This document shows, in pieces, positions 10,173 through 54,180 of a stretch of DNA of 64,000 nucleotides. The position numbers and the translations under genes were made by a program. The notes beneath the pieces are model-generated. The model was not told the DNA's origin. It saw nothing but the letters and a program-made list of their open reading frames with translations, and did no database searches. The DNA is from a bacterium (GTDB lineage: Bacteria > Bdellovibrionota_B > Oligoflexia > Oligoflexales > RGVZ01). Location: assembly GCA_043757325.1 (NCBI GenBank), contig JAYVPO010000019.1, positions 18,624 through 82,623 of the forward strand, written 5' to 3'. Positions within the stretch are counted from its first letter, which is position 1. Every line of letters starts with the position of its first letter.

Positions 10173-10380
10173 TAAAAATAAGCAGTCAGCAATAATTTCC
10201 TGTTATTAAAAAATCTTAAAATAAAAAATCAATATTATTGACGAGTTAAATTTCTTTTGATAATTTTTGAAATACGTTTTGGTTAACTGTCAAGTGTCCC
10301 TTGGAATTTTCGCGGCTGCCGTTGTAGTCGCAAACGAAAATCTTTGGCCACTGGGCGAACGTTCGAGGGGGTTACGGGCG

Positions 10381-11274: not shown

Positions 11275-11341
11275 TCCTAGATTTCGGCCTATATTGGAAA
11301 TTTTGCTCACGCTAAAACGCCGTGATTTTTTTGATTTGGAT

Positions 11342-12268: not shown

Positions 12269-12394
12269 GGTTCTTCTATTCTCCTAGGATCTTCTTCGGC
12301 ATTTTCACAAGGCCTCTTAGGAAAAAGGCCTTATATGAGTAAAAATGTCAATGATTATCGCGAGAAAGCTTTTTATTCGATCGAGATCAATCGC

Positions 12395-12883: not shown

Positions 12884-12951
12884 TTTCAACTCCTGATTGT
12901 GATTCATCTGCAACAACTTCCAGCTTTTGATTTGCTGGTTACTCTTATTAA

Positions 12952-12967
12952 AGCAATGCGCGTACCA
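12952..12967 (-). promoter_or_regulatory. Sigma-54 (-24/-12) promoter candidate for the Lys/His-rich protein gene
   Basis: The minus strand reads TGGTACG-CGCA-TTGCT against the consensus TGGCACG-N4-TTGCW, with correct GG-N10-GC spacing, about 70 nt upstream of the ATG. Confidence 0.55.
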
Positions 12968-13053
12968 AATGTTAGTTGTGAATTATTCGGGACTTACGTT
13001 TTTGAAATGTGAATGGGTTACGACAAGTGTCAAAATTTTTGACAGATAAGACA

Positions 13054-13084
13054 TAAAAAAAGCCGCAGAATCTGCGGCTTTTTC
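13054..13084 (-). terminator. Rho-independent terminator (bidirectional-looking)
   Basis: agccgca/tgcggct stem flanked by an A7 run on the + strand (T7 on the minus strand). Sits 20 nt downstream of the stop of the 13100-13849 gene. Confidence 0.8.
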
Positions 13085-13099
13085 GTTTAATATCATCAG

Positions 13100-13849: not shown

Positions 13850-13895
13850 AATTTAAGCCCTCATAAAATCTATAAACGACATTTTCTTTAGTATT

Positions 13896-13911
13896 TGCAA
13901 AAACGAGGCCC
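13896..13911 (-). promoter_or_regulatory. Weaker sigma-54-type promoter candidate for the Gly/Pro lipoprotein gene
   Basis: The minus strand reads gGGCctc-gttt-TTGCA. GG-N10-GC spacing is correct and the -12 TTGCA is perfect. The -24 box is only GGC. About 47 nt upstream of the ATG. Confidence 0.3.
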
Positions 13912-13978
13912 GCTATAACCCTCTACAACCTTTACCAAAACACCGTTAAAAAGCGGCTAAAGCTTAGACACTGTCGAC

Positions 13979-14848
13979 TTATGTGATTGTCGGTTGAGCC
14001 GCGAGACTATTATATGAGGCCAAATGTCCTGCTGTTCTTAACCCTAAATGCGCCATTACCTGATCGAGGGTTTTTCCTTGGCGAAATTGGTGACCGATAG
14101 CGTGTGATCGAAGTTCTTCGGTATTGAGTTTTTTAATTTCGCAATGATCACCAAGTTCATAGAGCGTAAACTTCACACCGTGTCTGGTTAAAGAAGTTAG
14201 ATGAACCGAAGAATGCTTGCCTTTAAATGCAATAAAAACATTTCCCGTGGATGAATACTTTCCGCATTCTTGAAACGTCGAGCGATAGTGTCGGAGTTGG
14301 GTAATGGTTTCGGAGCTCAAAATCAGCGTTCGAGGTCGCTGGCCTTTAATGCGAAGACTACCTTCGAAGCCAGACATTACAAGCTGTGACCAGGTTAGTT
14401 CCACAAGCTCACTCGCCTTTACCCCTTCCAACCCAAGTAAACATAATAAAGCCTGATCGCGCGCTGCTTTGAGACTAGAAAGTTGCGATTGGGCCGCAGC
14501 CATTAATTTTTCAAAAACTTCTTGATTGACCGAGATGCGTTTTTGTTCGGCACGATTTGGGATAACGACATGGGATGTGGGATTTTCGTTAACGTCACCT
14601 TGCACAATTAAAAATCGATAGAATTGCCTTAGACCAAGCAAAGCGCGCCGTGCAGAATTTATTTTTCCTGAGGAAAGTCTTGCCAACACAAATTCCGAAA
14701 CCGATTCCGCCGCCACAGCAAAAAAATTAAGTTTATGCGCGGTACAAAATTCTAGAAAAAGCTTTGTGTCACTGATGTAGGCTTCGCAAGTTGCGTCGGA
14801 TTTCCCGTGCGACTTAAGAAAAATTTTAAATTGAATTAAGTTTTCCAT
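13979..14848 (-). CDS. Tyrosine-recombinase (XerC/D, phage-integrase) family protein, catalytic motifs apparently degenerate
   Basis: SAM-like N-domain (FKIFLKSHGKSDATCEAYISDTKLFLEF) and a C-terminal ELRSHAIGHQF...AHLGLRTAGHLASY. Start taken at ATG 14848 (MENLIQF). Confidence 0.7.
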   Translation of the reverse strand: MENLIQFKIFLKSHGKSDATCEAYISDTKLFLEFCTAHKLNFFAVAAESVSEFVLARLSSGKINSARRALLGLRQFYRFLIVQGDVNENPTSHVVIPNRAEQKRISVNQEVFEKLMAAAQSQLSSLKAARDQALLCLLGLEGVKASELVELTWSQLVMSGFEGSLRIKGQRPRTLILSSETITQLRHYRSTFQECGKYSSTGNVFIAFKGKHSSVHLTSLTRHGVKFTLYELGDHCEIKKLNTEELRSHAIGHQFRQGKTLDQVMAHLGLRTAGHLASYNSLAAQPTIT

Positions 14849-14871
14849 TTTTTTAATGTTATCATAAAATA

Positions 14872-15477
14872 ATGCTTCACCGCCTAATTTTATTTTTTGT
14901 TGTTGTCTCAACCTCAAGTTTTGCTAGAGGTAGATCTTGCAAACTCATTTTTGAAGTCAACAAAACCAAAAGGGAAATCACAACCTCGGACACTTTGACT
15001 CTTTATCGCGGCGATCTTGTAAAACTAATAAAAACCTCACACTGTGGGTCTGATATGGTTTTTGAGTTTGTTGGTTTGAAACGCGATACTGAAAATCAAC
15101 CGCCGGTAAATGACCTTAATAACTTAATCGATACTGCCTATGCCTTTTCTGATGGAATTTATGCGCAAGGTAAATTTCAAATTTTTATGCGCAACTCTGC
15201 CGCCGAACTGAAAAGTCAAATTCAAGGTACGCTTTCAGAACCGGAGCTACACTATGCCGTGCTAACAACATCAGGAAGCGAAAGAATCGTAAGAAACGGC
15301 GATGTCATTGAGTTAATGGCGAAGCAAAAACTAAAAGTCTCACGGGTCGAAACAAATTTGACCGAAAAAAAGTTAATCAACGTGGAATTTAAAAACACGG
15401 GCCATTCAAACCGCGTTCAGTTGTTTGTAAAATATCAAAATTTTAAATTTGCAACTATTGAAACTCGGATCCGCTAA
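14872..15477 (+). CDS. Secreted hypothetical protein
   Basis: Signal peptide MLHRLILFFVVVSTSSFA. Its stop lies 2 nt before the start of the following kinase gene. Confidence 0.6.
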   Translation: MLHRLILFFVVVSTSSFARGRSCKLIFEVNKTKREITTSDTLTLYRGDLVKLIKTSHCGSDMVFEFVGLKRDTENQPPVNDLNNLIDTAYAFSDGIYAQGKFQIFMRNSAAELKSQIQGTLSEPELHYAVLTTSGSERIVRNGDVIELMAKQKLKVSRVETNLTEKKLINVEFKNTGHSNRVQLFVKYQNFKFATIETRIR

Positions 15478-26376: not shown

Positions 26377-26440
26377 GTTTAAATTTTTGAAAAGTTATTG
26401 AGTGACAATAACTTTTCAAGTCACAAATTAGGAGGACATC

Positions 26441-26876: not shown

Positions 26877-26916
26877 CCCCACGAAGCACGTTGTTGTGCT
26901 TTTGGGGTTGTTTTTG
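26877..26916 (+). terminator. rplL-rpoB intergenic hairpin + T-tract (attenuator-type partial terminator)
   Basis: cccc..aagcac (26877-89) pairs with gtgctt..gggg (26896-907), followed by ttgtttttg. This is the same position as the known rplL-rpoB attenuator in E. coli. Confidence 0.55.
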
Positions 26917-26955
26917 TCTCGTCAGCTACCCAATTCGAAAGAGGAACCTCTTCCC

Positions 26956-29900
26956 ATGACGTCTCTCGCATCTAGTTTTACTCGTCCTCGAAAAAGCTTT
27001 GCAAAAGTAACTTCTGCTATTGAAATTCCCTATTTAATAGAAATTCAAAAGAATAGTTATAACCAATTCCTTCAGTCGGATATCGACCCAAGCAAGCGTA
27101 AGAACGTTGGCCTGGAATCCGTATTTCGCTCGGTTTTCCCAGTTGAAGACCAGTCGGGAGCTGCGACCTTGGAATATGTTAATTATTATTTCGATGACCC
27201 TAAGTATAATGTGGACGAATGCCGTCAAAGGGGCATGAGTTATGCGGCTCCACTGCAAGTTAAAATCAAACTTGTGCGTTTTGAAATTGATAAAAACACT
27301 GGCGCTAAAGGCTTAGGACTTATCAGTGAGCAATGGGTTTATTTTGGCGAAATTCCACTTATGACCAACGACGGTACTTTTATCATAAATGGTATCGAGC
27401 GAGTCATTGTTTCGCAGCTTCATCGTTCATCAGGGGTCTTTTTTGACCACGATAAAGGTAACAACAGCACTACAGGAAAAGTCCTTTATACCGCCCGCAT
27501 TATTCCTTACCGCGGAAGCTGGCTTGATTTTGAATTTGACTCGAAGGATATTTTACATGTGCGAATCGACAAGCGCCGCAAACTGCATGCGTCGATTCTT
27601 TTAAAAGCTCTCGGATACACCGAAGCTCAATTGCTGGATTATTTTTACAAAAAAGAACAGGTTTTTATCCGCGACGGTAAATTCTTGAAACAACTTGATT
27701 TTGATTTGCTGAAATCGCAAAGAGCAAGTTCTGATATTACTGATCCGAAAACCGGGAAAGTTTTTGTGCGACGTGGTCGCCGAATTTCGGCAGGAGCCAT
27801 TCGTCAAATGCAGCAGGCAGGTCTTGAATTTCAAGACTTAAGTGCTGAGGACTTACTAGGAAAAGTGACCGCGGAAGAAGTTGCGGATAAGAACGGTGAC
27901 GTTGTTATTCCTTTGAACACGGAAATTGAAAAAGAACAGTTAAAAAATATTTTTAAAAGCGGAATCGATGAATTTAAAATCTTATTTATTGATGATTTAA
28001 ACGTCGACGCTGCCTTTCGAAATACTCTTGTAAACGATAAAGTCACCACGAAAAATGAGGCCGTCGTTGAGATATTTAAACGTCTACGGCCAGGTGAACC
28101 ACCGACTTTAGAAGAAGCTAACAAGGTTTTTGATAATCTATTTTTTAATCCTGATCGTTACGATTTAACTACTGTTGGTCGGTTAAAAATTAACGCACGT
28201 CTGGGAGTTGATGCGGATTTAGAGCAAAGAACCTTAAGTAAAGAAGACATTTTAAAAACCGTTGAATATCTTTTGAAATTAAAAAATGGCGACGGAGAAA
28301 TCGACGATATTGATCACCTTGGAAATCGCCGCGTACGCGCGGTTGGCGAGCTTTTAGAAAATCAGTATCGCCTAGGTCTTTTGCGAATGGAAAAGCAAAT
28401 TAAAGAAAAACTTCAGTCGCATGATTTGGCAAATGCGTTGGCTTCGGATTTTATTAACAACAAACCCGTGACTGCGGTGGTTAAAGAATTTTTTGGAAGT
28501 TCGCAGCTCAGTCAGTTTATGGATCAGACAAATCCTCTATCAGAGATCACGCACAAAAGGCGCCTATCCGCCCTTGGACCTGGTGGTTTGAGTCGAGATC
28601 GCGCAGGTTTCGAAGTGCGCGACGTGCATCCAACGCACTACGGAAGAATTTGTCCTGTTGAAACACCAGAGGGACCAAATATTGGTTTGATTTCATCTTT
28701 GGCTTGTTTTGCGCGAGTGAATGAATATGGGTTTATCGAAACTCCATTTCAAAATATTAAAGATGCCTCTGTAAAATATTATTCTGCTAACGAAGAACAC
28801 AAAAATCACGTGGTGGCCCAAGCGACTTTTGATCACAGCCAACCTGGTGATAATTTTATCGGTGCTCGCCGAAGCGGTGAGAGCGAAATTGTGCGAGCGG
28901 AAGAAGCCGATTTGAAGGATGTTGGGACGAATCAACTGGTTTCTGTGGCAGCTTCTTTGATCCCATTTTTACAAAATGACGATGCGAACCGCGCTCTAAT
29001 GGGTTCCAACATGCAGCGCCAAGCAGTGCCGTTAATTCGAACTGCAGCTCCATTGATTGGCACTGGCCTTGAGAGAACCGTGGCTCGAGATTCTGGTGCT
29101 ACTGTTGTTGCTAAACGGGATGGTGTCGTTGTGGCACTTGATTCCGATCGTATTGTTTTAAAAACTTTCGAAGCCGATACGGACAATTTGACCGAAGTCG
29201 GAGCCGATGTTGATATTTACAATTTGCAGAAATACAAGCGCTCTAATGTTGACACCTGTATTAACCAACGCCCGATTGTTCAAAAAGGTGAAACTGTTCG
29301 TAAAGGCGATATCATAGCTGATGGATTCGCGACTGAACTTGGAGAACTTGCCTTAGGCCAAAATGTCGTAGTGGCATTTATGCCTTGGAATGGTTACAAC
29401 TTTGAAGATTCAATTCTTATTTCCGAACGAGTTGTGAAAGAAGATTTATTCACCAGTGTTCATATTCAAGAATTTGAATGTATTTCTCGAGACACAAAGT
29501 TAGGCGCCGAAGAAATCACCGGTGATATACCTAACGTGGGTGAAGAAGCTCTTAAGAATCTCGACGATGCAGGAATCATTCGAATTGGTGCTGAAGTCAA
29601 GCCTAGCGATATTTTGGTTGGAAAAATCACCCCAAAAGGCGAAACCCAACTCACCCCAGAAGAAAAACTGTTAAAAGCTATCTTCGGTGAGAAAGCAGGG
29701 GACGTTCGTGATACCTCTTTGCGAGTACCGCCAGGAGTTGTAGGAACCGTTATCGGAGCCAAGGTTTTTGCCCGTGCTGGTGAAGAAAAAGATTCGCGCA
29801 GTTTGCAGATTGAAGCTCAGGAAGTTGCGAAAATCAAAAAAGATGAATCTGATAAAATTTCTATCATCAAGGACTCGGCAGTTGGAAAGATCGCGCGAAT

Positions 29901-31077
29901 TTCGGCTGCTGATGAACTTGCTGCAGATATTAAAGATGACAGTGGCGAAGTTGTGGCCAAAAAAGGCTCCAAAGTCGACGCGGCATTTTTAGAAAATCTC
30001 GATTACAGCCTTTGGGAACAAGTTACGGTTAAAAAGTTAGAAAATAGCTCGAATCTCAAAAAAGCTTTAGATAACTTAAAAGAGAAAATTAATTTAATTC
30101 GCTTTATTAGTGATGAACAAATTAAAAAAGTTAAAAAAGGCGACGAGTTGCCGCCAACGGTTATCAAGCTTGTAAAAGTTTATGTGGCTATTAAACGTAA
30201 ACTTGCAGTCGGTGATAAAATGGCAGGACGGCACGGGAATAAAGGGGTTGTTTCGCGCATCCTTCCCGAAGAAGATATGCCATTTTTAGCCAACGGCAAA
30301 CCAGTTGACGTGGTGTTAAATCCTCTCGGTGTTCCGTCACGTATGAATGTGGGACAAATTCTTGAGACACATTTGGGTTGGGCTGCCAAAGGAATCGGCG
30401 AAAAAATAAGTCGCTTTTTAGAAGAAAATTCTCCTAAAGAAGAACTACAAAAGTATGCGCTTAGTGTTTGGAAAAACGATCCAGAAGTGGAAAAATTTGT
30501 AAAATCTGCTACCGAAGATCAGCTTAAAACTTTTTTAAGCAAATATAAAAACGGTGTGCATTTTGCAAACCCAGTTTTTGATGGGGCTACGGAAGAAGAA
30601 ATTCGCGATACTCTGACGCTAGCGGGATTTGACCGCACTGGACAGGTTTATCTCTACGATGGAAGAACAGGCAATAGATTCGACAAGCCCGTTACGGTGG
30701 GAGTGATGTATGTGCTTAAACTTCATCACTTGGTCGACGAAAAAATTCATGCACGAGCAACCGGACCCTACAGTCTTATTACACAGCAGCCTTTAGGCGG
30801 AAAAGCACAATTCGGTGGTCAGCGACTTGGAGAAATGGAAGTTTGGGCTATGGAGGCTTATGGCGCCGCGTTCACACTTCAGGAATTTCTAACAGTGAAG
30901 TCTGATGATGTTGTAGGACGAACACGGATGTATGAAGCGATTGTTAAAGGTACTAACATCATGACGCCAGGACTTCCTGAAAGTTTCAACGTGCTGATTA
31001 AAGAACTGCAAAGTCTTGGTCTTGACGTATCGCTATTACGTAAAGACGGAGATCAAGTTGTGTCCCATGAGATTTGA
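26956..31077 (+). CDS. rpoB: DNA-directed RNA polymerase subunit beta
   Basis: Start taken at ATG 26956 ([22 protein letters not shown] upstream). The ORF-track GTG 26896 lies inside the attenuator hairpin. Conserved motifs occur throughout ([15 protein letters not shown] etc). Confidence 0.97.
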
Positions 31078-39972: not shown

Positions 39973-41508
39973 TTGTTAAGCTCCAAAATAGTTTTGCAAA
40001 ATAAATGGCCGCGGTTTTACTTTAAAGCAATTTTTTTTGAAGCGATTTTTTTCTGTCTTCCTATTCTGTGGTGGATGGGCCTGAATGTCATGGATTTGGC
40101 TCGTCTTTTTTTAATTGTTATTGCGTATCTTTACCTGAAATATCCTGAAGTTCGCAAATTTGCCTTTGTACCATCAAAACTTAAATTGAATTTACTTTGC
40201 ATTTTAATAATTTCTTTTCTTGTTCTTCTGCCGTTAGAGCTCAATTTAAGAAACTTTCTTGGGCATACCGTTAATGACACGAATATTTTTAATCAAGCAG
40301 CCGTTAACTTTGCAAATCATGGTCGATTCTGGGTAACTTTAAATCGTGCCGGACAAAACGATTTTTTAGCTGACCACGTTTCTCCAATACTACTGATACC
40401 GGCCTTTTTTTACAAACTCGGTATCCCTGCTTACTCAATTTCGATTGTCTTCCAGCAGATATGCTTTTTGATCGGGAGTTATTTTGCAATTAAGATCCTA
40501 AAAGAGTTAAAATTCGACATATTTAGTTCACTGCTTATACTTTTGCTTCTTCTCTATCAGCCAACTTTTCGAAGCCAACTTACCTGGAGTGTTCAGGTGG
40601 AATATATGAGTTTCCCCTTTATTGCTGCGAGCTATTTTTTTTGGTTAAAAGATAAAAATTGGCTTTCGGTTTTCACGGCTGTTTTAAGTTGGTCCTGCAA
40701 GGAATCCCTTGCTTGTTGGAGTGTTGGATTTGGTCTCTTTGCTTTGGCTTATTTGTTGGTTTATCGGCGGAATTACTTCTGGCAAAAAAGCCTGCCTTTT
40801 TTAGTTCTGACAATTTCAGGAAGCTTTTATTTTTACCTCGTCATTTACCACCACAGCCTTTTTTTTGGTCGGGATTACGACTATCTTTCAAGGCTTGATT
40901 TCACTTGGATTTGGCAAAATCCTTTGCTTGTTTTTAAAAAACTTAGATATCTATGTTTTTTCATTGCTAGTGTTTTCTTCATTCCAATTCAAAAACCTAA
41001 ATACTTGATATTTTTACTACCGGTGTTACCGAACTTTGGAATGAGTCTGGTATCTGGTTTTGACGATATGTACGAAATCAGCAAACAATATGCTTTATTT
41101 CCTGCTATGATTTTATTTCTGACCACTATTTTAGCAACAAAAGTATTGTTTCCAATTAAAAAAAACTCAATCCTGAAGCTACCACTGGTTCCATGTTGTC
41201 TACTTATGTGCTTTTATTTTTCCTTTCTTTCTTTAAGGCCGATGAAGATTTTTAAGGAGTGGATTTTTGAAGACTTCTATCACGCCGATGATTTTACTCA
41301 AATTCCACTTACAGAAAATGTCTTTGCAACCTTGAAATCAGCGCCATTTCTATTAGATCGCAAAGGAGTTTTTCTAAGCGATTACGATTCGAAATTGAGT
41401 TATGCTCTGGTACACCACTCGGAAATTTCTAAAATACCACAAACTATTATCGAGAAAACTTCAATCTGCCTTGATACAAAGGAATGGTATGCACGCTGTG
41501 CCAACTAA
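39973..41508 (+). CDS. Polytopic membrane protein, DUF2079-type (putative GT-C glycosyltransferase), paralog 1
   Basis: At least 10 predicted TM segments. DTNIFNQAAVNFANHGRFWVTLNR...FLADHVSPILLIPAFFYKLG and SWSCKESLACWSVGFGLFAL. TTG start. Confidence 0.8.
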   Translation: MLSSKIVLQNKWPRFYFKAIFFEAIFFCLPILWWMGLNVMDLARLFLIVIAYLYLKYPEVRKFAFVPSKLKLNLLCILIISFLVLLPLELNLRNFLGHTVNDTNIFNQAAVNFANHGRFWVTLNRAGQNDFLADHVSPILLIPAFFYKLGIPAYSISIVFQQICFLIGSYFAIKILKELKFDIFSSLLILLLLLYQPTFRSQLTWSVQVEYMSFPFIAASYFFWLKDKNWLSVFTAVLSWSCKESLACWSVGFGLFALAYLLVYRRNYFWQKSLPFLVLTISGSFYFYLVIYHHSLFFGRDYDYLSRLDFTWIWQNPLLVFKKLRYLCFFIASVFFIPIQKPKYLIFLLPVLPNFGMSLVSGFDDMYEISKQYALFPAMILFLTTILATKVLFPIKKNSILKLPLVPCCLLMCFYFSFLSLRPMKIFKEWIFEDFYHADDFTQIPLTENVFATLKSAPFLLDRKGVFLSDYDSKLSYALVHHSEISKIPQTIIEKTSICLDTKEWYARCAN

Positions 41509-43033
41509 AAAAAACAGCTCACACGGCTTGTTTATATTATTTTTAAGTTTACCTATCTGTTGGCTTTCAGGCCTAAGTATTATTGATATTTCACGTATTA
41601 TACTCGGAATGATTGTCATTTTATTTTTAAAATATCCGAAGATAGTATCGTTAGTTTTTCCAAATACGGTGTGGTCAAAAACTTCAATAACTACAGTGAT
41701 CGTCACCATTTTGATTTTTGTACCTTTAGTTTTAAATCTGCGAAATTTTATTGGTGAAAGTGTTGTTGATACACAGATCTTTAATCAAGCTGCTGTAAAT
41801 TTTGCTAATCACGGTCGTTTTTGGGTTAGTTTAAATCGATTTTGGCTAAGTGATTTTTTAGCAGATCACGTATCACCAATTTTAATAGCACCAGCTTTTC
41901 TTTATCGGTTAGGGATCCCGGCTTATAGTTGTGCGATATTTTTTCAAATGCTAACCACAGGTTTAGGTTCCTGGTGTTTATTTTATCTAGCCAAGATATT
42001 AAAATTTGACACCATGTCATCGCTTGCTGTCTGCCTTATATTCCTTTGTCTTGGACCCATTCGAAATCAACTAACGTGGAATGTGCAGGCCGAATATATG
42101 AGTTTTCCGTTTGTTGTTTTAACTTATTATTTTTGGGTAAAAAAATATCACTGGGTTGCAGTAACCGCGGCGGTTCTAAGCTGGTCATGTAAGGAAACTC
42201 TAGCCTGCTGGAGTGTGGGTTTTGGACTTTTCGCACTTGCGTATGATTTGATTGTTGTACGCCAAAAATCCTTTCGAACGGTTTTACCTTATTTGTTACT
42301 TGTGGTTTGCGGAACAGCGTATTTTTTTGGGTTGGTGATTTTTCATGAATTTATTTTTGGCCGAAGTTTTGATTACTTGGGCCGTATAGATTTGCAAAGT
42401 ATTTTTGAGAGTCCAAAGATATTTTTGGAAAAAATTGGGTATATCGTCTTCTTTTTGAGCGCGGGGCTCTTTTATTTTTTCTGGAAGAAAATAAATATGA
42501 TTTTTCTTTTGCCGATACTACCTCATTTTATTATAAGTTTTATTTCCAATTCATCGCATATGAGAGAACTAGGTCGCGAGTACGCACTTTTTCCTGCAAT
42601 GGCTGTGTATATTGCGACTATTACTGCTTTTGGCCTCAATAAAAATATTTCGAATTCCAAAGTTCGGCCTTTCACAATCCCAGCATGCGCGGGCGTATTT
42701 GTTTTGGCATTGTACTTTGCGTTTTTACCGTCAAAGCCAATGGGAGTTTTACATGATTATTTTGCATTGCCTAAACTGTCAACCGAGTCATTACAGTTTA
42801 TTCCGCGAGAAGCCGACGTTTATGTAAGTTTGCGAGCAGCACCGTTTCTACTGGATAGGCATATTCTTTACTTATACACGGCCCGAACGGAAAAGTGGCC
42901 TGAATTTGATTATCTTGTTATTCATCAAAACGAACTCAAAGATTTAACCCAAATAATTAAAGAAAAAACTAGGGCCTGTTTTGAATCTATTGATTGGCAT
43001 GTACGGTGCAAACTTAATGCCACGAAACCATAA
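41489..43033 (+). CDS. DUF2079-type membrane protein, paralog 2
   Basis: Very similar to paralog 1 in the conserved blocks (QIFNQAAVNFANHGRFWVSLNR...FLADHVSPILIAPAFLYRLG). ATG 41489 overlaps the end of paralog 1 by 20 nt. Confidence 0.8.
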   Translation: MHAVPTKKNSSHGLFILFLSLPICWLSGLSIIDISRIILGMIVILFLKYPKIVSLVFPNTVWSKTSITTVIVTILIFVPLVLNLRNFIGESVVDTQIFNQAAVNFANHGRFWVSLNRFWLSDFLADHVSPILIAPAFLYRLGIPAYSCAIFFQMLTTGLGSWCLFYLAKILKFDTMSSLAVCLIFLCLGPIRNQLTWNVQAEYMSFPFVVLTYYFWVKKYHWVAVTAAVLSWSCKETLACWSVGFGLFALAYDLIVVRQKSFRTVLPYLLLVVCGTAYFFGLVIFHEFIFGRSFDYLGRIDLQSIFESPKIFLEKIGYIVFFLSAGLFYFFWKKINMIFLLPILPHFIISFISNSSHMRELGREYALFPAMAVYIATITAFGLNKNISNSKVRPFTIPACAGVFVLALYFAFLPSKPMGVLHDYFALPKLSTESLQFIPREADVYVSLRAAPFLLDRHILYLYTARTEKWPEFDYLVIHQNELKDLTQIIKEKTRACFESIDWHVRCKLNATKP

Positions 43034-44534
43034 TAAAATATTGAACAAAATACTGCCTACAATTTTTTTTGCAATACCAACATTTTGGCTTCTAGGCATA
43101 AGTGTACAAGACCTGTGCAGAATTCTTACCCTCGGAATAATTATCCTTGGCTTTAACAGACCGAAATTTTGGGAAATTACGTTTGCAAACTCAAAGGCAA
43201 TTACCATGCTTTCTGGCGGCATCCTTTTCGGCCTTATTTTAATACTAACAGTAAGCCTTGCTCAGCGTGTATTTTTGGGAAGCACTTTTATCGATACTGT
43301 GATTTTTTCCGAAGCGGCTCAGAAATTCGCAACTTCAGGAGAGTTTACAACTTCGATTAACCGACTTTTTATCAATAATTTTATGGCGGATCACTTTGCG
43401 CCTATTCTTATTATACCTGCGTTTTTAATTAAACTAGGCATTCCGAACTATTGGAGTTCCATAGGCGCTCAGTTTTTATTTTTGATTTTTGGAGCACTTG
43501 CGGCTTTTAAACTTATGCGTGCACTGAATTACAACAATGCTTCCGCATCAATTTTGACAACGTTACTTTTTTTTCAAGCAACTGTACGCGGAAATCTTTA
43601 TTGGCAGGTTCAAATTGAGTACTGGTCTATTGGTTTTGTTTGTTTGGCATTTCTTTTTTGGTTTAAAGAAAAGCCCATCTTAAGTTTTTTGTTTGCGGTT
43701 CTAAGTTGGACGTGTAAAGAATCTCTGGCGCTATGGACGATTAGTTTTGCCCTTTTTGCAATAACTCATGAATTAGTATTTCGGCATGGTAGGTCAAAAA
43801 AAATCTACATTTTTCTATTATTTGTAGCGCTTGGTTATTTTTCTACGTTAATTTACGCGCATACGTTTTTATTTGGTCGGCGCTATGATTATCTTTCGCG
43901 GATCGAATGGCGAGGTATTTTTGAAGATTTAGCACAACTTCAAAATAAGGTTTTTTATTTAATTTTTTTTCTAGCATCGGTAGGATTTTATTTGCTGCGC
44001 ACAAAAAAAAGGTTTGTATATCTTTTGCCGCTTGCTTCGATTTTTGCTTTAGCGTTAGTTTCTAACAAAAGTGATATGCATGATATCACAAAACAGTATT
44101 CGTTTTTTCCAGGTTTTTTGATTTTTTTAATTACCGCAATTGCCTACTCCGATTCAGCTAAAAAAAGCGCCGAACATTTGATTTCGGTACCCATCCTACC
44201 CGCGGTTTTCTCCATGTGTTTTAGCTTTATGTTTTTTCCACTTCGACCCATTAAATTAATCCGAAATTATTCTCAAAATAAGTTAAACCCCAGTCCTTTA
44301 AATAATATTCCTATCACTTCTCGAGTTGTCGTCACCACAAAAAGTGCCCCGTTTTTGCTTGATAGAATGCAGCTAATTGAAATGCAGAATATCGGAGACA
44401 ATCTGGTTTCTTTTGATTTTATTGCTGTGGAGAAAAACGCAGAAAAAGACATACCTCAATCGATTAAAAATCAAACTAGATCTTTCCTAGTAGCACATGA
44501 CTGGATTATTCTAGCAAGGAGAACGGATCATTAA
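42999..44534 (+). CDS. DUF2079-type membrane protein, paralog 3 (more diverged)
   Basis: FSEAAQKFATSGEFTTSINR...FMADHFAPILIIPAFLIKLG and SWTCKESLALWTISFALFAI. The start is ATG 42999 (or 43017) and overlaps the end of paralog 2. Confidence 0.78.
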   Translation: MYGANLMPRNHNKILNKILPTIFFAIPTFWLLGISVQDLCRILTLGIIILGFNRPKFWEITFANSKAITMLSGGILFGLILILTVSLAQRVFLGSTFIDTVIFSEAAQKFATSGEFTTSINRLFINNFMADHFAPILIIPAFLIKLGIPNYWSSIGAQFLFLIFGALAAFKLMRALNYNNASASILTTLLFFQATVRGNLYWQVQIEYWSIGFVCLAFLFWFKEKPILSFLFAVLSWTCKESLALWTISFALFAITHELVFRHGRSKKIYIFLLFVALGYFSTLIYAHTFLFGRRYDYLSRIEWRGIFEDLAQLQNKVFYLIFFLASVGFYLLRTKKRFVYLLPLASIFALALVSNKSDMHDITKQYSFFPGFLIFLITAIAYSDSAKKSAEHLISVPILPAVFSMCFSFMFFPLRPIKLIRNYSQNKLNPSPLNNIPITSRVVVTTKSAPFLLDRMQLIEMQNIGDNLVSFDFIAVEKNAEKDIPQSIKNQTRSFLVAHDWIILARRTDH

Positions 44535-44601
44535 CTTTTCAAAAAAAAACACTTTTTTATCTTTTTTAACTTCCAAAAAAATTTTTGGGTTTTTTGTTTT
44601 A

Positions 44602-45963
44602 ATGGCGGTGTTTCGGATTGTTTCTGGTGTTATCTCTTCCATTCACCCAATTACATCGCCGCACACTTGGCGCCAAGTCGATACCTTGAGCGTAGCTTTT
44701 CGCTATTGGCAAAGGTGGACATTGGACACCGATCATACTTTGTGGTTTTTCCCTGCGGTGCTAAATTCATCCGACAAGTATGGGTTTATGTTAATGGAAT
44801 TTCCCCTGTTGAATATTTTTTTGGCCCCAGCGTTTTTTTTAGGGATTGAAACGGGCAGATCTGCAGCACATTTAATATTAATTTTTCTAGTGGTGGTTTT
44901 TTGCTTTTTAAATTTTAAAATTTGGCAGAAAAAATCTCTTCTGCAAACCGAAACTTCCTCCAAGTTAGTGGCTTTCGCGGCTGCGCTTTTTCCATTTTTT
45001 TCTTTTTGTTCGGCATTTACATTTAAGTGCATTCCCGATGTTTTTTCTGTACAGCTTGTTTTACTTGGCTTGGGACTTTTTGTGAGTAAATGTTCTCGAA
45101 AGCGTTTAATTTACGCAGTTGTTTGCGTTATTTTAGGTTGTTTAATTAAACCTGTTAGTATTTTTGTATTTGGATTTTTCATTGTTATTTTCCATGAAAC
45201 AAATTTTAAATTAAAGGCAAAAGTGATATTCCTATTTACCATTTGTGCTTTTTCTTGCTGGATTTATTACACTAAGCTTCTGCCTCATTTTTCTTACCTT
45301 GTCGAACTGGCGCCGAAATTTGCGGTTAAACCGCGTGGTTTTTTGGATAATCTCCAAGGACTTAAAGGTGAATCCTTTATTCAGGTTTTAGATTTTTTTA
45401 ACTATCATTTGATGGCGCCTTGGGTTTTGGTTCTCTTGTTGTTTGTAAATTACGCAAGACAAAAGCTGGTTTTGGTAGTTGGTGTAGTTTTATTGCAGAT
45501 CGTCAGCATTCTATTGGTCGACGGCCCGCATGCTTTTGTTCATGCTTATTATTTTTCAGCTTTGGCACCATTGTTTCTTTATTTGACTTTAAAAGTCGTG
45601 CTTTCTAATCGATTATTAGGTTTTTTAATTCTTTTACTGATTTTTGTAAGGAATTCAGAAAACACCATTGCGGATTTTAAGAATTTTAATCCTGCCTCAA
45701 AAATATCGGTAATGTTTGCAGAATGCGCAACTTTCAAATTTGAATTCCCCAATTTTCCATGGGGTAAAAATCTTACTTTTCGCAGTTCAAACGAAATTTA
45801 CCCTTTGCTTGGCCTGTGTTTTGGTGAGCGCCAAGACTCGAACACTTCCGACTTTGGATTTTATTATGGAAATGATCCATTACCCAGTGACTGTCGTGAA
45901 ATCGCAAGAAAACACGAGTTGAAGTTAGCAGACTGCAGCGGCAAAACAAGCTCAACCTTCTAA
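44602..45963 (+). CDS. Polytopic membrane protein, ArnT/PMT_2-like GT-C glycosyltransferase candidate
   Basis: N-terminal WRQVDTLSVAFRYW...GFMLMEFPLLNIFLAPAF resembles the WRQxDTAxIARNF...EFPLY signature of PMT_2/ArnT-like enzymes (recalled from memory). Many TM segments. Confidence 0.7.
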   Translation: MAVFRIVSGVISSIHPITSPHTWRQVDTLSVAFRYWQRWTLDTDHTLWFFPAVLNSSDKYGFMLMEFPLLNIFLAPAFFLGIETGRSAAHLILIFLVVVFCFLNFKIWQKKSLLQTETSSKLVAFAAALFPFFSFCSAFTFKCIPDVFSVQLVLLGLGLFVSKCSRKRLIYAVVCVILGCLIKPVSIFVFGFFIVIFHETNFKLKAKVIFLFTICAFSCWIYYTKLLPHFSYLVELAPKFAVKPRGFLDNLQGLKGESFIQVLDFFNYHLMAPWVLVLLLFVNYARQKLVLVVGVVLLQIVSILLVDGPHAFVHAYYFSALAPLFLYLTLKVVLSNRLLGFLILLLIFVRNSENTIADFKNFNPASKISVMFAECATFKFEFPNFPWGKNLTFRSSNEIYPLLGLCFGERQDSNTSDFGFYYGNDPLPSDCREIARKHELKLADCSGKTSSTF

Positions 45964-46068: not shown

Positions 46069-46779
46069 ATGAAGATATTATTTTTACTGCTGCTTACGGT
46101 TGCCTATGCTAACACATCGAGTGCGAGTGAATATCATCAGTATTTTCTCTTGCGCCGTGGAAAGCAAATTTTAAAACAAGATTCTATCCAATCCAAAGCG
46201 CACTTAACCGGATTGCAGTCCGATTTAGTGTTGCCCTATTTAGGACGTTTACAAATTTCATTCGACATGTCTCCAAATGTCACAAACGATACGAGCCTTG
46301 GAATAGAAAGCCTGCAGTGGAATCGTGGCACAGTTGGAAAGCCTTTCACAAAAGATTTTAAAAGCAGTTCTATTGACTTTACTCTTAGGGCTAGGTTGAC
46401 TAATTACCGCAGCAATTTGCCTACTATTGTGGATGGCGTAGAAACTGAAATCACCAACTTGGATATTGTCAATTGTGGCATTGCGGTAGCCGAACTGGGT
46501 TACGAGAAAAGAATTGCAACCGACTGGCTAAGAATTTATTACAACTACGGGTTATCTGTTCTTCGTAAGTCCCCCACGAAAGTCTGGGAGCATCAGGCAG
46601 GTGCCCATTATTTTCTTCCACTTTTCTCTACAGCTTCGCATTTTTCTGTTTTGATTAACGCATTTGCAGAGTTCGACAGTTTTAAATTTAGAAAACCTTC
46701 CGAGTCAGATGAAACCATCGATAGTGAACTCCGCGGCTCGACAGTTTTTGTCGGAGTCGGTTTAGGTTTTTCATTTTAA
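46069..46779 (+). CDS. Small outer-membrane beta-barrel-like protein
   Basis: Start at MKILFLLLLTVAYANTSSA (signal peptide). Alternating-hydrophobic strands. C-terminal GVGLGFSF ends in Phe. Confidence 0.65.
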   Translation: MKILFLLLLTVAYANTSSASEYHQYFLLRRGKQILKQDSIQSKAHLTGLQSDLVLPYLGRLQISFDMSPNVTNDTSLGIESLQWNRGTVGKPFTKDFKSSSIDFTLRARLTNYRSNLPTIVDGVETEITNLDIVNCGIAVAELGYEKRIATDWLRIYYNYGLSVLRKSPTKVWEHQAGAHYFLPLFSTASHFSVLINAFAEFDSFKFRKPSESDETIDSELRGSTVFVGVGLGFSF

Positions 46780-48131
46780 AATATTTTAAGACATTCAAGA
46801 TCTTTTAAAAAATCCGCAAAAGCTTTTTCTTGATTTTCTCGTGCTCGAAGGATGGCAGATGGATGGGTCGTTACTAATATTTTTGCATTATTTTTCAACT
46901 GAATAAGACTCCCGCGGACGTCTTTAATTTTTACAACTTTGCCTAAAATAGCTTGGGCAGCAGTTGCCCCTAAACAAACAATTATTTCAGGTTTTATAAG
47001 TTCCAACTCGTGATCAAGCCAGGATTTGCAAACAGCAATTTCTCTGGATTCAGGATTTTGATGGATACGCTTTCGACCTTCACCGGGTGTCCACTTAAAA
47101 TGTTTGACCGCATTCGTAATGTAAATCTGTTGACGATTTATCCCCAATATTTCCAATGCTCGATCAAGAAGCTGTCCTGCCGGGCCAACAAAAGGCAGTC
47201 CTGCTAAATCTTCTTGATCACCGGGCTGTTCTCCGACAAAAACAATTTTCGCATCTTTGGGCCCTTCTCCAAAAACGGTTTGCGTTGCATTTTTATGAAG
47301 GGGACAAAAAGTGCAACTTTTCGCAAGAGTTTTTAAATCCTCTAAAGTTGAGTTTACGGTCGTATGCTCTTGGATAAATTTTTCTGGAGAAGGCGGCTGC
47401 CAGGAAAGCATTTCCTCAACACGCTGTGGAGCTTTTTGTAACATAGATTCGATAATTTTGGTTTCGGGCAAAGTTTTCCAATGACGTACCGGCATTTCGT
47501 TTTTCATGGCTTTAATTTTAATGCGCGCAGGATTAAAAATATGCGCATAGTAAGTTAACCAATAGGTTTCAAAATCATCTTTTAAGCAAGGATCGATTTC
47601 GACTCCAGCCGAATAAATTAATTTTTTGCCGTCCCAATGCATCGACTCGTCAGGTGTCAAAATCGACCATTTCATAATTGCAAACCGCTCAACAAAAAAT
47701 GGCGCCGCAAGACGGACCACAAAATGATCGGGATTGTGCCAAGCGATATAAGTGTTTTCGTCAACTTGTTTAAATCGCACAAACGCTTTCATTTTATGGG
47801 TATCACGATGAACCGCTTTGGCACGCCGCTGAAGTTTTATAATGTCGTCATCTGTTAAATTAAGCATCAGAGTTTTGTCTTCGAATTGTAACCGCCACAA
47901 AAGCCGATACAACAAATCCCACCTGTCTTCTGATCTGAATAATCCGGCCTTTTCAGCTAATGAGACAAACTCACGCGGCACAAAAATTTGACTTTTTTGC
48001 GGATAGGAAATTTCTGTGCTGAGATCTCTAAGCTGCCAATTAACTTCTTCGGGCATTATTTTTAAATTAACCAGCGCTCGTGCAACCTTTCGCCAATTTG
48101 CAAAAGTTCCATCGATCGCGACGGTTTTCAC
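46776..48131 (-). CDS. DUF4130 domain fused to a family-4 uracil-DNA glycosylase of UdgX type
   Basis: Motif A GEQPGDQEDLAGLPFVGPAGQLLD, motif B HPSAILR, and the UdgX-type insertion GRKRIHQNP (RKRIH at 47061-47075). N-terminal FVRFKQV...WHNPDHFVV...FFVERF (DUF4130/TIGR03915-like). Confidence 0.85.
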   Translation of the reverse strand: MKTVAIDGTFANWRKVARALVNLKIMPEEVNWQLRDLSTEISYPQKSQIFVPREFVSLAEKAGLFRSEDRWDLLYRLLWRLQFEDKTLMLNLTDDDIIKLQRRAKAVHRDTHKMKAFVRFKQVDENTYIAWHNPDHFVVRLAAPFFVERFAIMKWSILTPDESMHWDGKKLIYSAGVEIDPCLKDDFETYWLTYYAHIFNPARIKIKAMKNEMPVRHWKTLPETKIIESMLQKAPQRVEEMLSWQPPSPEKFIQEHTTVNSTLEDLKTLAKSCTFCPLHKNATQTVFGEGPKDAKIVFVGEQPGDQEDLAGLPFVGPAGQLLDRALEILGINRQQIYITNAVKHFKWTPGEGRKRIHQNPESREIAVCKSWLDHELELIKPEIIVCLGATAAQAILGKVVKIKDVRGSLIQLKNNAKILVTTHPSAILRARENQEKAFADFLKDLECLKIF

Positions 48132-49390
48132 ACAAACTCTCGAATAATAGGCTCGCCAGTAACGGGATCATCAAACAAACTACGTTGAAAATACTTTGGC
48201 AGATGAATTTCATTTTCGAAAATTTTTAATTGCGTTCTGTTTTCTGAAATGGGCTCGTTAACTGTCACAAAGAACTTCACTTTTTCCAAAGAAACTCGCA
48301 TCTTTTTTAAATCCGTCCAGGTCAATAAATGATGCTTACGGACTTGCAGTATTTTTTTAACTGATCCAACACCTAAACCGGGAACTCGCAGAAGTGCTTT
48401 TTCTTGAGCTCGATTTACGTCGACTGGAAAAAAGTGTTTATTACGTAAAGCCCAGCTTAATTTTGGGTCATTTTTTAAGTCTAAATTTGGTTCGGCTTCA
48501 GTGGTTAATTCTTCAACTGCAAATCCGTAGAACCTCAATAACCAGTCTGCTTGGTATAGCCGATGCTCCCGCACTAAAGGCGGCGAAACCAACGGCAAAC
48601 GAGGGTCAGCGTCGGGAATTGGACTAAAAGCAGAGTAATAAACGCGCCGCAGATTATGCTTTTCGTATAAGTGATCTGCGGTTTTTAGAATCGCAGCGTC
48701 CGTGCTTGGAGTGGCTCCAACGATCATTTGAGTGCTCTGGCCACCAGGCGCAAAAATTGCTTTTTTGTCTCCGTCTTTTTTGCGTTCGAAAGAATTTGTA
48801 ATTTCGGATTTGATTGTTGTCATAACGTTTTCAATCGACACGTGGTCTTTCGCTGGAGCGAGTTGATTGAGATCTGCTTGAGTTGGCAACTCGATATTTG
48901 CGCTCAACCGATCAGCCCATTTTCCGGCTTCAATAAATAACTCCGGTGTAGCACCAGCAACCGCTTTTAGGTGAATATACCCACCAAATCGGTGTTTTGT
49001 GCGCAGATTTTTGGCAACTTTTATAAGCTCTTCCATTGTTGCATCAGGCGAACGTTGAACTCCTGAGCTCAAAAATAATCCTTCAATGTAATTGCGTTTA
49101 TAGAATTCAAGAGTAAGAGTCACAACCTCATCAGGAGAGAATTTTGCCCGAGGAATTTGACTAGAAACACGGTTGATACAATAAGTGCAGTCGAATATAC
49201 AGGCGTTGGTTAAAAGGATTTTGAGTAACGAGACACAACGCCCATCTGGAGTATAACTATGACAGATGCCGATCTTCTCGGTGGATCCGAGGCCGTTTTT
49301 AAAGCGTTTTTGCTTAACTCCACTGCTGGCACAGGAAGCATCATATTTGGCTGCGTCTGCAAGAATAGCGAGTTTTTTTTCGAGTTCCAT
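48128..49390 (-). CDS. Putative DNA modification/repair radical SAM protein (TIGR03916-like)
   Basis: CIFDCTYC CxxxCxxC cluster motif. C-terminal helix-hairpin-helix-like LLRVPGLGVGSVKKIL. 4-nt overlap with the UdgX-fusion gene. Confidence 0.85.
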   Translation of the reverse strand: MELEKKLAILADAAKYDASCASSGVKQKRFKNGLGSTEKIGICHSYTPDGRCVSLLKILLTNACIFDCTYCINRVSSQIPRAKFSPDEVVTLTLEFYKRNYIEGLFLSSGVQRSPDATMEELIKVAKNLRTKHRFGGYIHLKAVAGATPELFIEAGKWADRLSANIELPTQADLNQLAPAKDHVSIENVMTTIKSEITNSFERKKDGDKKAIFAPGGQSTQMIVGATPSTDAAILKTADHLYEKHNLRRVYYSAFSPIPDADPRLPLVSPPLVREHRLYQADWLLRFYGFAVEELTTEAEPNLDLKNDPKLSWALRNKHFFPVDVNRAQEKALLRVPGLGVGSVKKILQVRKHHLLTWTDLKKMRVSLEKVKFFVTVNEPISENRTQLKIFENEIHLPKYFQRSLFDDPVTGEPIIREFV

Positions 49391-49420
49391 ATTAGTTAAA
49401 ACCTCATTGCTGTGACTAAT

Positions 49421-49439
49421 TTAATACGTAAAGTATTAA
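49421..49439. promoter_or_regulatory. Perfect 7-5-7 palindrome upstream of the radical SAM gene (operator candidate)
   Basis: TTAATAC-GTAAA-GTATTAA, 31-49 nt upstream of the ATG at 49390. Nested inside a second inverted pair cattgct (49405-11) / agcaatg (49441-47). Confidence 0.4.
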
Positions 49440-49558
49440 AAGCAATGAAGTTTGCGAAAATTCAGATGAAGTTTAACCGACTTATTCTAAAAGAATATTC
49501 TGAATTGCTGTATTACCAGTGTGATACTTAAGCGCCGACCTTTTTATAGTTGGGCACA

Positions 49559-52650: not shown

Positions 52651-54180
52651 TTATGGAATAACATAAAAATTAATGGATTGTTTTTCCAGAAGCATCATTT
52701 TGGAGTCTAAAATTCTAATGACTAAGCGGTGAAGTCCAGGTGTTGTGACAATATCTGCCGCAAAAACCGCGGCCGCTTTTTTGCCTTTAGCAGCAGATAC
52801 TCCATCGATATCTAGCTCAATCCCACTTTGATCTGGAATCGCGGTTCCTTCAAATTGTAGAGTTAGAGTGTTTTTTTTATCAAGGAAAACCACACCGCGA
52901 CTCAGACCATCTATTTGCATGGTGAAATTTTTAAATTTCCCCCAGTTGTTTTCCCAAACCGGTTCTTTCAAAGAATCCGGAAGATTATTTTCATCGGCTC
53001 CAATGGATTTCGCCCAGAGTTTTAGAACTTTGTCGGAATTGACATTGGGATTACTCGAATCTTTTGAGCCGTTTCCTGGTAATATTTCAAAAGCTGCCCA
53101 GACAAATGCAGGATGGGCGGTTTGACTTTCTCTGGCCCACTCTCCACCTACAATAAAGCCATCTACGTCAGTTTCGAGGACATACCTATACTTGGAATTA
53201 TGAGGCTCCAAATGGGGCGCAATACTGCCAAGAGCTTCTTCGTCTGGCGCATTTGCATAAAAGGCCGTCATATGAATATCAAAAAACTTTTTAGCATCCG
53301 GATTAAAAACATAAGTTTTTTCGCCGCTACCAATAATTTTTAATGCAGCCTCGCGATCAACTTCGGCTTTAGTAAATCGATACGCGTAGTGCGGATAATT
53401 CCACACGGCATTATCGGGCGAAATATCCACAACGATTGCCTGATTGGCCCGTGCAATCCAATTGGTCAAAACCGTGTGAAATGTTGCGGCGTTGGTATCA
53501 TCACAGGCGCTTCCAATAGTCGGATTCTTGCGGTTTAGAGCACTCGGGAATTTTTCAGGGTGGTTGCGATCTAAAGGTAATAAACACCTATTTCCAGCCA
53601 AAAATAAATACTTCACATTCATATAAACTTCAGCCAATAAAGCTTTGATATCATGGGGCCTAAAAACCACGCCGTTTTTTGTCACATCTCGATTTGGTTC
53701 TTGACGGTTAGAACTGGCCGCTGAATAGCCATTGCAGTGTCCGGCCCAATTTGGAATGTCTTCGAGTTTTTCTTTCTGCTTTGGTCCGTGATTGAGCATT
53801 TCCCAATCGGCAGCAAGACTTTTTCCGGAATTAAAAACCCGGTCATATTTTTGTAACGGCGAAAACCCATCCGATAAAATGACATTAGTTCCGCCCGCTT
53901 TTTGCGGATACCAGTGGCCTGAATAAGGCTTTTTCTCGTCAGAGACTGAGATTTCTAAAGGAATTAATGGGTCGTTAATATTCTTGATAAAGTTAGTTCG
54001 AAACAAATAGAAAAAGTAATTAGCACTCGTGTCGAGTTCACTACCGGTATTTAATTTTAAAATCGAATCGAAAGGCTGCGACCGATTGGTGTTAGATTTT
54101 GTATCGGGAGCTATATTTTGTTTACACTGCAAAAATAAAAGCGCCGAAAGTAGGTAAAAATATTTAAGACTGTGGCTCAT
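52651..54180 (-). CDS. Secreted lipoprotein, possible Cys-nucleophile (transglutaminase/papain-like) enzyme
   Basis: Lipobox LFLQC. NWAGHCNGYSAAS motif. No confident family assignment. Confidence 0.7.
   Translation of the reverse strand: MSHSLKYFYLLSALLFLQCKQNIAPDTKSNTNRSQPFDSILKLNTGSELDTSANYFFYLFRTNFIKNINDPLIPLEISVSDEKKPYSGHWYPQKAGGTNVILSDGFSPLQKYDRVFNSGKSLAADWEMLNHGPKQKEKLEDIPNWAGHCNGYSAASSNRQEPNRDVTKNGVVFRPHDIKALLAEVYMNVKYLFLAGNRCLLPLDRNHPEKFPSALNRKNPTIGSACDDTNAATFHTVLTNWIARANQAIVVDISPDNAVWNYPHYAYRFTKAEVDREAALKIIGSGEKTYVFNPDAKKFFDIHMTAFYANAPDEEALGSIAPHLEPHNSKYRYVLETDVDGFIVGGEWARESQTAHPAFVWAAFEILPGNGSKDSSNPNVNSDKVLKLWAKSIGADENNLPDSLKEPVWENNWGKFKNFTMQIDGLSRGVVFLDKKNTLTLQFEGTAIPDQSGIELDIDGVSAAKGKKAAAVFAADIVTTPGLHRLVIRILDSKMMLLEKQSINFYVIP

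Follow-up and report, generated by a model that had tools for sequence, protein, structure and literature searches.

The window analysed here is a stretch of 64,000 nt from contig JAYVPO010000019.1 (assembly GCA_043757325.1) of a bacterium of the Oligoflexales lineage, and the present study concerns two overlapping genes on its minus strand, which encode a radical S-adenosylmethionine (SAM) enzyme and a protein that joins a DUF4130 domain to a uracil-DNA glycosylase (UDG) domain of the UdgX family. The radical SAM gene (48128..49390; 420 aa, ATG start) was delimited from its open reading frame (ORF), its match to the profile TIGR03916 and its many homologues, and the fused gene (46776..48131; 451 aa, GTG start) from its ORF, profile matches and an AlphaFold 2 (AF2) model. 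At the junction (ttt gtg tga aaa), the two genes have the four nucleotides GTGA in common (48128..48131, minus strand), with the TGA stop codon of the first at 48130-48128 and the GTG start codon of the second at 48131-48129, and the same 4-nt overlap is found in the closest relatives (loci L002 and L003) as well as in locus L090. As read from the sequence, this arrangement amounts to translational coupling of the two genes, and the proteins are hence made together. A preliminary description of this stretch had already reported the 4-nt overlap, the glycosylase motifs, the CxxxCxxC motif of the radical SAM enzyme and an N-terminal domain of about 250 aa fused to the glycosylase, and all of these hold: the motifs were recovered from the ORF translations where it had placed them, the codons for RKRIH (cgaaagcgtatccat) occupy exactly 47075..47061, and the N-terminal domain proved to be DUF4130/TIGR03915 (residues 6-224; NCBIfam and Pfam). 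The profiles TIGR03914, TIGR03915 and TIGR03916, with which it had suggested searching, were all matched well above their curated cut-offs.

The UdgX domain spans residues 227-446 of the fused protein (46794..47453, minus strand), a range on which profile, PDB match and superposition bear. The NCBIfam model TIGR03914 ('UdgX family uracil-DNA binding protein') was matched with 281.3 bits over these residues (cut-off 189.95) and the Pfam UDG family with E = 3e-37, and among all PDB sequences the best matches of the fused protein were structures of M. smegmatis UdgX (E = 2e-54). The features by which UdgX proteins are recognised, namely the Gln of motif A and the His of the R-loop, as well as the residue numbering, were taken from a published account (PMC10359453). 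Motif A (GEQPGD, residues 300-305; 47217..47234, minus strand) forms the beginning of GEQPGDQEDLAGLPFVGPAG (residues 300-319), is invariant in the fused homologues and carries the UdgX-specific Gln (GEQPG), as opposed to the Ala or Gly of family-4 UDGs; in the alignment, G300-E-Q-P-G304 lies opposite positions 51-55 of M. smegmatis UdgX, and the counterparts of E52, Q53 and D56 are E301, Q302 and D305. The R-loop RKRIH (residues 353-357; 47061..47075, minus strand), which is part of GRKRIHQNP (residues 352-360), lies opposite K105-R-R-I-H109, with R355 opposite R107 and H357 opposite the cross-linking H109 in the PDB sequence alignment, and the window protein is one residue shorter before the loop (GRKRIH vs GGKRRIH). 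Motif B (HPSAILR, residues 423-429; 46845..46865, minus strand), located by translation and by the UdgX and homologue alignments, has an Ile at one of the Leu/Val positions of the pattern HPS(S/A)(L/V)(L/V)R, and its H423 lies opposite H178. Three of the four [4Fe-4S] ligands could be placed by alignment, namely C273, C276 and C368 opposite C24, C27 and C120; C386 is found opposite a Leu. Across 114 fused homologues, E301, Q302, D305, D308, N340, R355, H357 and H423 are invariant, as are the three aligned Fe-S cysteines.

In the AF2 model of the fused protein (pLDDT 92.6, pTM 0.70), the UDG domain superposes on UdgX crystal structures with a root-mean-square deviation of 1.5-1.9 A and TM-scores of 0.86-0.91 (normalised to the target), and a fold search with the whole model returned matches to the UDG domain only. 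Since alignment, invariance in the 114 homologues and superposition agree, we conclude that H357 occupies the UdgX loop position, where the preliminary description had expected it; its classification of the glycosylase as UdgX-type is thereby upheld by the best PDB match, the motif A Gln, the R-loop His and the superposition alike. By homology, the domain would be expected to excise uracil and H357 to cross-link to the resulting abasic site. One could also imagine that the glycosylase is an ordinary turnover enzyme of family 4 which serves base-excision repair, for example after error-prone synthesis, and that the radical SAM gene is merely a co-regulated neighbour. The family-4 fold and motifs, a match of 166.6 bits between the UDG domain and the NCBIfam family-4 model TIGR00758 and TM-scores of about 0.85 to the UDGs of T. 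maritima and T. thermophilus would be in line with this idea; TIGR03914, however, outscores the family-4 model (281 vs 167 bits), the UdgX-specific Gln of motif A and the Arg and His of the R-loop are invariant in the homologues, and a physical complex is favoured by the near-universal synteny described below, the 4-nt overlap and the fusion to a DUF4130 domain predicted to bind the radical SAM enzyme, such that we consider this explanation quite improbable.

The DUF4130 domain (residues 6-224; 47460..48116, minus strand) was recognised from its matches to TIGR03915 (192.6 bits, cut-off 112.25) and Pfam DUF4130 (E = 4e-39; 134.4 bits vs 27) and from its invariant columns, which include R18, Y75, D110, H112, K113, F117-R119 and R149 as well as W166, W191, Y194, Y195, N200, R203 and E223. 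By sequence, no relative of the domain was found in the PDB. An exhaustive HMMER search with DUF4130 alone yielded 2140 representatives at 50% clustering, 1072 of them at E <= 1e-10, and the best 150 matches comprised 76 proteins with a UDG domain, 54 short stand-alone proteins and at least four fusions in which DUF72 stands in place of the UDG domain (P0392, P0494, P0469 and P0443). A computational prediction describes DUF72 (Tm1631) as a DNA repair protein resembling endonuclease IV (PMC3828134). Both a stand-alone DUF4130 gene (L090) and a DUF4130-DUF72 gene (P0392; L089 5001-6881) were found directly downstream of radical SAM genes that are 54-60% identical to that of the window (55% in L089), and no UDG gene lies within 5 kb in L090. 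Since the C-terminal module varies and solo UdgX proteins exist without the core, the conserved core of the module is the radical SAM enzyme together with DUF4130, to which UdgX, DUF72 or nothing is added. At the C-terminal position, UdgX thus alternates with at least one other module, and these modules would handle uracil or abasic sites. The preliminary description, which had read UdgX, DUF4130 and the radical SAM enzyme as one module, was correct as regards the trio but overlooked that UdgX is an optional add-on to this core.

The radical SAM enzyme matches TIGR03916 with 570.8 bits (cut-off 343.5), in agreement with the Pfam family Radical_SAM. Its [4Fe-4S] site C64-x3-C68-x2-C71 (49178..49201, minus strand), read from the translation, is invariant in the homologue alignment and in 71 of 71 genome-locus sequences. 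Conservation along the protein peaks near the N-terminus, in the peptides AKYDASC and GICHSxTPDGRC, which belong to a segment (49235..49333, minus strand; AKYDASC ... GICHSYTPDGRC) whose residues C20, C43, H44 and C52 are invariant in alignments of 56 database homologues and of 70 genome-locus sequences. We infer that these residues may constitute a second metal or cluster site, with an auxiliary Fe-S cluster as a candidate, or may act as catalytic cysteines; in the AF2 model (pLDDT 81.8), residues 18-42 fall below pLDDT 50 and are unplaced. In the accessible text of a recent preprint (bioRxiv 10.64898/2026.08.19.745780), CxxxCxxC is the one motif mentioned for the radical SAM protein. A helix-hairpin-helix-like, candidate DNA-binding segment (residues 322-354; 48329..48427, minus strand) is suggested by a weak Pfam HHH_3 match (22.2 bits, E = 1.5e-4, below the gathering score of 27) in a region with a pLDDT of around 95.

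The radical SAM partner has been labelled 'SplB-like' (Aravind 2013, PMC3765255), and COG1533 (SplB) and COG4277 have been treated as separate SOS genes elsewhere (PMC8565304). Against all PDB chains, including those of spore photoproduct lyase (SPL), the protein gave no sequence match at E <= 0.01, and SPL is absent from the 50 best structural matches of the model. The best of these are HydE, HydG, BioB, ThiH, LipA/LIAS and MiaB, with TM-scores of about 0.4 over about 240 columns, which represents the generic barrel. Since neither a PDB sequence match nor an SPL among the top 50 folds was obtained, the label 'SplB-like' is not supported, and an SPL-like photolyase was rejected as a candidate.

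When clustered at 90% identity, the homologues of each protein make up more than 8000 clusters, and both proteins are already present in NCBI. The fused protein shares 69% identity with its closest relative and about 50% with the next ones; the radical SAM protein is much more conserved, with 89% identity to its closest relative and 60-69% to further ones in various phyla. Scanning one genome per species revealed at least 590 loci, and the best 80 of these were used for the analysis of synteny, flanking ORFs and regulation. They stem from Verrucomicrobiota, Planctomycetota, Acidobacteriota, Myxococcota, a metagenome-assembled genome (MAG) of Bacteriovoracaceae, many Alphaproteobacteria and Xanthomonas. 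A radical SAM homologue is located upstream and on the same strand in 77 of the 80 loci, directly adjacent in most of them, and two of the three loci that lack it are contig ends, which, together with the 4-nt overlap, bears out the earlier claim that the glycosylase is coupled to the radical SAM gene. An insert of 0.6-1.4 kb separates the two genes in seven loci from sphingomonads, a Rhizobiaceae MAG and Xanthomonas. In sphingomonads, a hemerythrin-like ORF of ~160 aa was observed between them (L048 5408-5902, L078 5480-5959), which matches the PA2171 family weakly (47.9 bits, below the cut-off), and other inserts are found in L076 and L079.

All-against-all clustering of the flanking ORFs from the 80 loci revealed no third conserved partner, as only the two genes recur; the other large ORF clusters were discarded as partners, as they consisted of antisense ORFs from high-GC regions or reflected lineage-specific synteny. 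Neither protein matched a PADLOC defence model at E <= 0.01, and 2.9 million viral contigs gave one match. This contig (L088 8001-9152, from IMG/VR) alone in the viral collection carries a radical SAM gene of the TIGR03916 type (55% identity), and no DUF4130 or UDG match was found in the 855 nt downstream before the contig ends. With no PADLOC match and one locus in 2.9 million viral contigs, anti-phage defence and phage DNA hypermodification were rejected. The module is cellular and has no link to phages or known defence systems.

With regard to regulation, Aravind et al. (2013) tied DUF4130, the radical SAM enzyme and the UDG to the SOS network (PMC3765255), a 'COG1573-COG4277 operon' was described as SOS-regulated in Bacteroidetes, Verrucomicrobia and Alphaproteobacteria (PMC8565304), and in Acinetobacter, the radical SAM and TIGR03915 genes are damage-response genes that depend on the WYL activator DdaA (PMC12392091). 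Among the loci of alphaproteobacterial type, 43 of 46 carry a LexA box (GAAC-N7-GAAC or GTTC-N7-GTTC) in the 120 nt that precede the radical SAM start, against a background rate of 0.002 per 120 nt. These boxes are mostly positioned at -17 to -34, and at -96 to -99 in Bradyrhizobium/Rhodopseudomonas (L013, L021, L022, L025, L032, L038 and L039). Since the operon is divergent from imuA/imuB-like genes in several Bradyrhizobium loci (e.g., L022 and L025; the ImuA match is weak and below the cut-off), the LexA operator is probably common to both units there. In the window itself, a perfect palindrome (TTTAATAC-N5-GTATTAAA; 49420..49440) was noticed upon inspection of the upstream region. It has arms of 8+8 nt and a 5-nt spacer, lies 30-50 nt upstream of the radical SAM ATG within a 168-nt spacer and overlaps a plausible promoter (putative spacer/-10 region), and it may be regarded as a candidate operator; no second copy is present in the window.

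The family, the fusion, the operon and the damage regulation are thus already represented in curated databases and the literature, and the locus has no feature that distinguishes it. When the preliminary description called the trio a recurrent neighbourhood with no established function, it was in agreement with PMC3765255, PMC8565304 and the preprint (bioRxiv 10.64898/2026.08.19.745780). Its proposal of a DNA damage, modification or sensing module is supported, but it had missed that SOS/DNA-damage regulation was already published.

The same body of evidence bears on the question whether the module modifies nucleic acids rather than responds to their damage. It can be envisaged that the radical SAM enzyme installs, for instance, a thiolation or methylthiolation on DNA in the manner of MiaB or LipA, that DUF4130 confers specificity and that the UDG domain flips or exchanges the target base. 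The structural neighbours HydE, BioB, LipA/LIAS and MiaB, several of them enzymes with an auxiliary cluster, the three extra invariant cysteines of the radical SAM enzyme, the AlphaFold 3 placement of DUF4130 where the TRAM domain of MiaB sits and the NCBI family name, which leaves 'modification' open, can all be cited for it. Nevertheless, the TM-scores to these neighbours reach only about 0.4, DNA-damage regulators control the module in at least four lineages, neither the clustering of flanking ORFs nor PADLOC revealed a methyltransferase, restriction or defence partner, and the module is virtually absent from viral contigs, which taken together makes DNA modification an unlikely function. 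It has also to be asked whether the radical SAM-DUF4130 pair acts on tRNA or rRNA, like RlmN, Cfr or MiaB, with the UDG fusion being incidental. The preprint leaves the type of nucleic acid unassigned and notes a narrow single-strand channel, whereas the fusion of DUF4130 to DNA-specific modules (UdgX or the endonuclease-IV-like DUF72), the control by LexA or DdaA and the linkage to imuA/imuB speak for DNA, and an RNA substrate seems very improbable to us.

From our point of view, the locus is best explained as an orthologous copy of a known two-gene DNA-damage-response module, in which a radical SAM gene (TIGR03916/COG4277) is followed by a gene for a DUF4130 (TIGR03915)-UdgX (TIGR03914/COG1573) fusion, and for this explanation as a whole, including the working outlined in the following, we estimate a probability of roughly 60%. 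DUF4130 would dock on the radical SAM enzyme and form a narrow nucleic-acid channel at the position of the TRAM domain of MiaB, as suggested by the AlphaFold 3 prediction for an unfused pair. The UdgX domain, given its ~55% identity to M. smegmatis UdgX and its conserved catalytic residues, would flip out and excise uracil, whereupon H357 would attack C1' of the abasic site and create a covalent protein-DNA link. This link could tether the radical SAM-DUF4130 core to damaged, probably single-stranded DNA, or mark or shield the abasic site on it, and the radical SAM enzyme might then apply 5'-deoxyadenosyl radical chemistry to a DNA lesion, possibly aided by an auxiliary cluster bound to C20, C43 and C52. 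In this scheme, UdgX represents an accessory module for the handling of lesions, and the core also occurs bare or with DUF72.

Several observations weigh against this explanation. Cross-linking by the fused form is deduced from homology only. As the core occurs without UdgX and mycobacterial UdgX without the core, a mechanistic link between the two activities is not obligatory. With respect to damage regulation, none of the described LexA motifs that were tried (alphaproteobacterial, E. coli-type, Gram-positive, Verrucomicrobia, Xanthomonas and Bdellovibrio TTAC-N3-GTAA) was found upstream of the operon in the window. Furthermore, a palindrome of the size of that at 49420-49440 arises by chance in about 5% of shuffles, and it is absent from the related loci L002 and L003, in which the promoter region can otherwise be aligned.

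A further question is whether the UdgX-DNA adduct could itself be the substrate or an on-pathway intermediate, with the radical SAM enzyme resolving the His-C1' link or turning the abasic site caught in it into a nucleotide that is repaired or altered. The fused proteins with a radical SAM partner retain the cross-linking His without exception, the fused architecture entails obligate coupling, the UdgX adduct is not known to be reversed by any enzyme, and the UdgX literature searched is silent on radical SAM enzymes; the frequent occurrence of the radical SAM-DUF4130 core without any UDG domain and the mycobacterial solo UdgX proteins without a radical SAM or DUF4130 gene within 6 kb, however, render such a role doubtful. 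One could speculate along similar lines that the His-C1' adduct is a deliberate tether or intermediate and that radical chemistry acts on the abasic site held in this way or on a lesion next to it, for example in cross-link resolution or base replacement. We regard this as an outside chance, but if true, it would represent a new kind of DNA repair and would provide UdgX with the physiological role that it has lacked since 2015.

Irrespective of the mechanism, the two-gene damage-response module is among the most widespread DNA-damage-inducible bacterial gene pairs without a known reaction. To our knowledge, UdgX is the only type of glycosylase known to cross-link itself to DNA, and joining the fields of UdgX biochemistry and radical SAM enzymology could direct experiments. 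The locus described here adds nothing beyond thousands of others, some of which are present in genetically tractable bacteria, and the role of the radical SAM enzyme and of the self-cross-linking glycosylase attached to it is a real question that is better pursued in such organisms. The exchangeability of UdgX and DUF72, the solo nature of mycobacterial UdgX, the additional Cys/His set of the radical SAM enzyme and its lack of similarity to SPL are the additions of the present analysis that may aid the design of such experiments.

No SOS genes were found near the locus within the window, and the genes around it encode a Big_5 protein, a TGase_elicitor homologue, DUF2079 membrane proteins, SurE and an M23 peptidase. 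The Big_5 protein (829 aa, with a probable signal peptide) is encoded immediately upstream of the radical SAM gene and follows the gene at 52651-54180 (minus strand), whose product is a bacterial protein homologous to the 'transglutaminase elicitor' family (PF16683, E = 3e-37). On the other side, three paralogous polytopic membrane proteins with DUF2079, encoded in tandem, and one more membrane protein (39973-45963, plus strand) form a block with a G+C content of 35-37% vs about 41% and a strong T-over-A skew, which may be an acquired or fast-evolving envelope locus. Further away, an ORF for an IrrE/ImmA-like M78 peptidase (10267-11274, plus strand), a tyrosine integrase (13979-14917, minus strand), unannotated small ORFs around them and a GC-rich hairpin with 13-bp arms (13057-13083) were observed, and the region 10267-14917 may be the remnant of a mobile element. 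Lastly, a perfect palindrome with 14-bp arms (TTGAAAAGTTATTG-N5-CAATAACTTTTCAA; 26387-26419) is located in the gap upstream of a 1393-aa ORF (26896-31077), which is presumed to be rpoB from its size and position only.

Among named systems, M. smegmatis UdgX (MSMEG_0265; PDB 6AJO, 6IO9, 6IOD and others) is a close point of reference, with ~55% identity over the aligned UDG domain. Both proteins belong to TIGR03914, and motif A (GEQPG), the R-loop His, motif B and three Fe-S cysteines align between them. Whereas M. smegmatis UdgX stands alone, with about 209 aa, the window protein adds an N-terminal DUF4130 domain of about 225 aa, has the loop RKRIH instead of KRRIH and is encoded by a gene that, unlike the solo one, is translationally coupled to a radical SAM gene. 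The mycobacterial clade to which the characterised UdgX belongs consists of solo proteins of 208-233 aa, and no radical SAM or DUF4130 gene was found within 6 kb of two of its relatives, P0243 (97% identical) and P0297 (M. fortuitum). The UDG domain of this clade is about as similar to the fused domains (52%) as these are among themselves (55%). At the mycobacterial loci L084-L087, the neighbours of the UdgX gene are genes for an alpha/beta hydrolase and an Orn/Lys/Arg decarboxylase, and neither a radical SAM nor a DUF4130 gene is present within 6 kb; in L085 and L086, the neighbourhood continues with an M78 peptidase and two integrases. In the literature searched, the UdgX papers make no mention of radical SAM enzymes and no paper contains both terms, and the solo context of the mycobacterial proteins may explain this silence.

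The SOS 'COG1573-COG4277' operon described by the Erill laboratory and the DdaA-regulated genes of Acinetobacter comprise the same gene pair in the same order, and unlike in the SOS-regulated operons, no recognisable LexA box of a described type lies upstream of the pair in the window, only an unconserved palindrome. A pair from Lachnospiraceae, consisting of a DUF4130 protein (R9IYY8) and a radical SAM protein (R9J760), resembles that of the window in families, adjacency, the CxxxCxxC motif and a helix-hairpin-helix segment, which is a weakly matched candidate in the window enzyme. AlphaFold 3 predicts a heterodimer for this pair that is formed via DUF4130 (ipSAE 0.80), with a narrow nucleic-acid channel and with DUF4130 in the position of the MiaB TRAM domain (bioRxiv 10.64898/2026.08.19.745780). 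The Lachnospiraceae DUF4130 protein has no UDG domain, and the window protein adds the UdgX module.

SplB (COG1533) resembles the window enzyme in being a radical SAM enzyme with a link to DNA damage, but the window enzyme is not a member of the SplB family. A functional analogy only can be drawn to HMCES/YedK, the SRAP proteins, which are SOS-associated and link covalently to abasic sites. Their fold is unrelated to that of UdgX, the bond is a Cys thiazolidine instead of a His N-glycosidic link, and SRAP proteins do not excise a base. SRAP belongs to the same SOS gene-neighbourhood network in which DUF4130, the radical SAM enzyme and the UDG were placed (Aravind 2013, PMC3765255).

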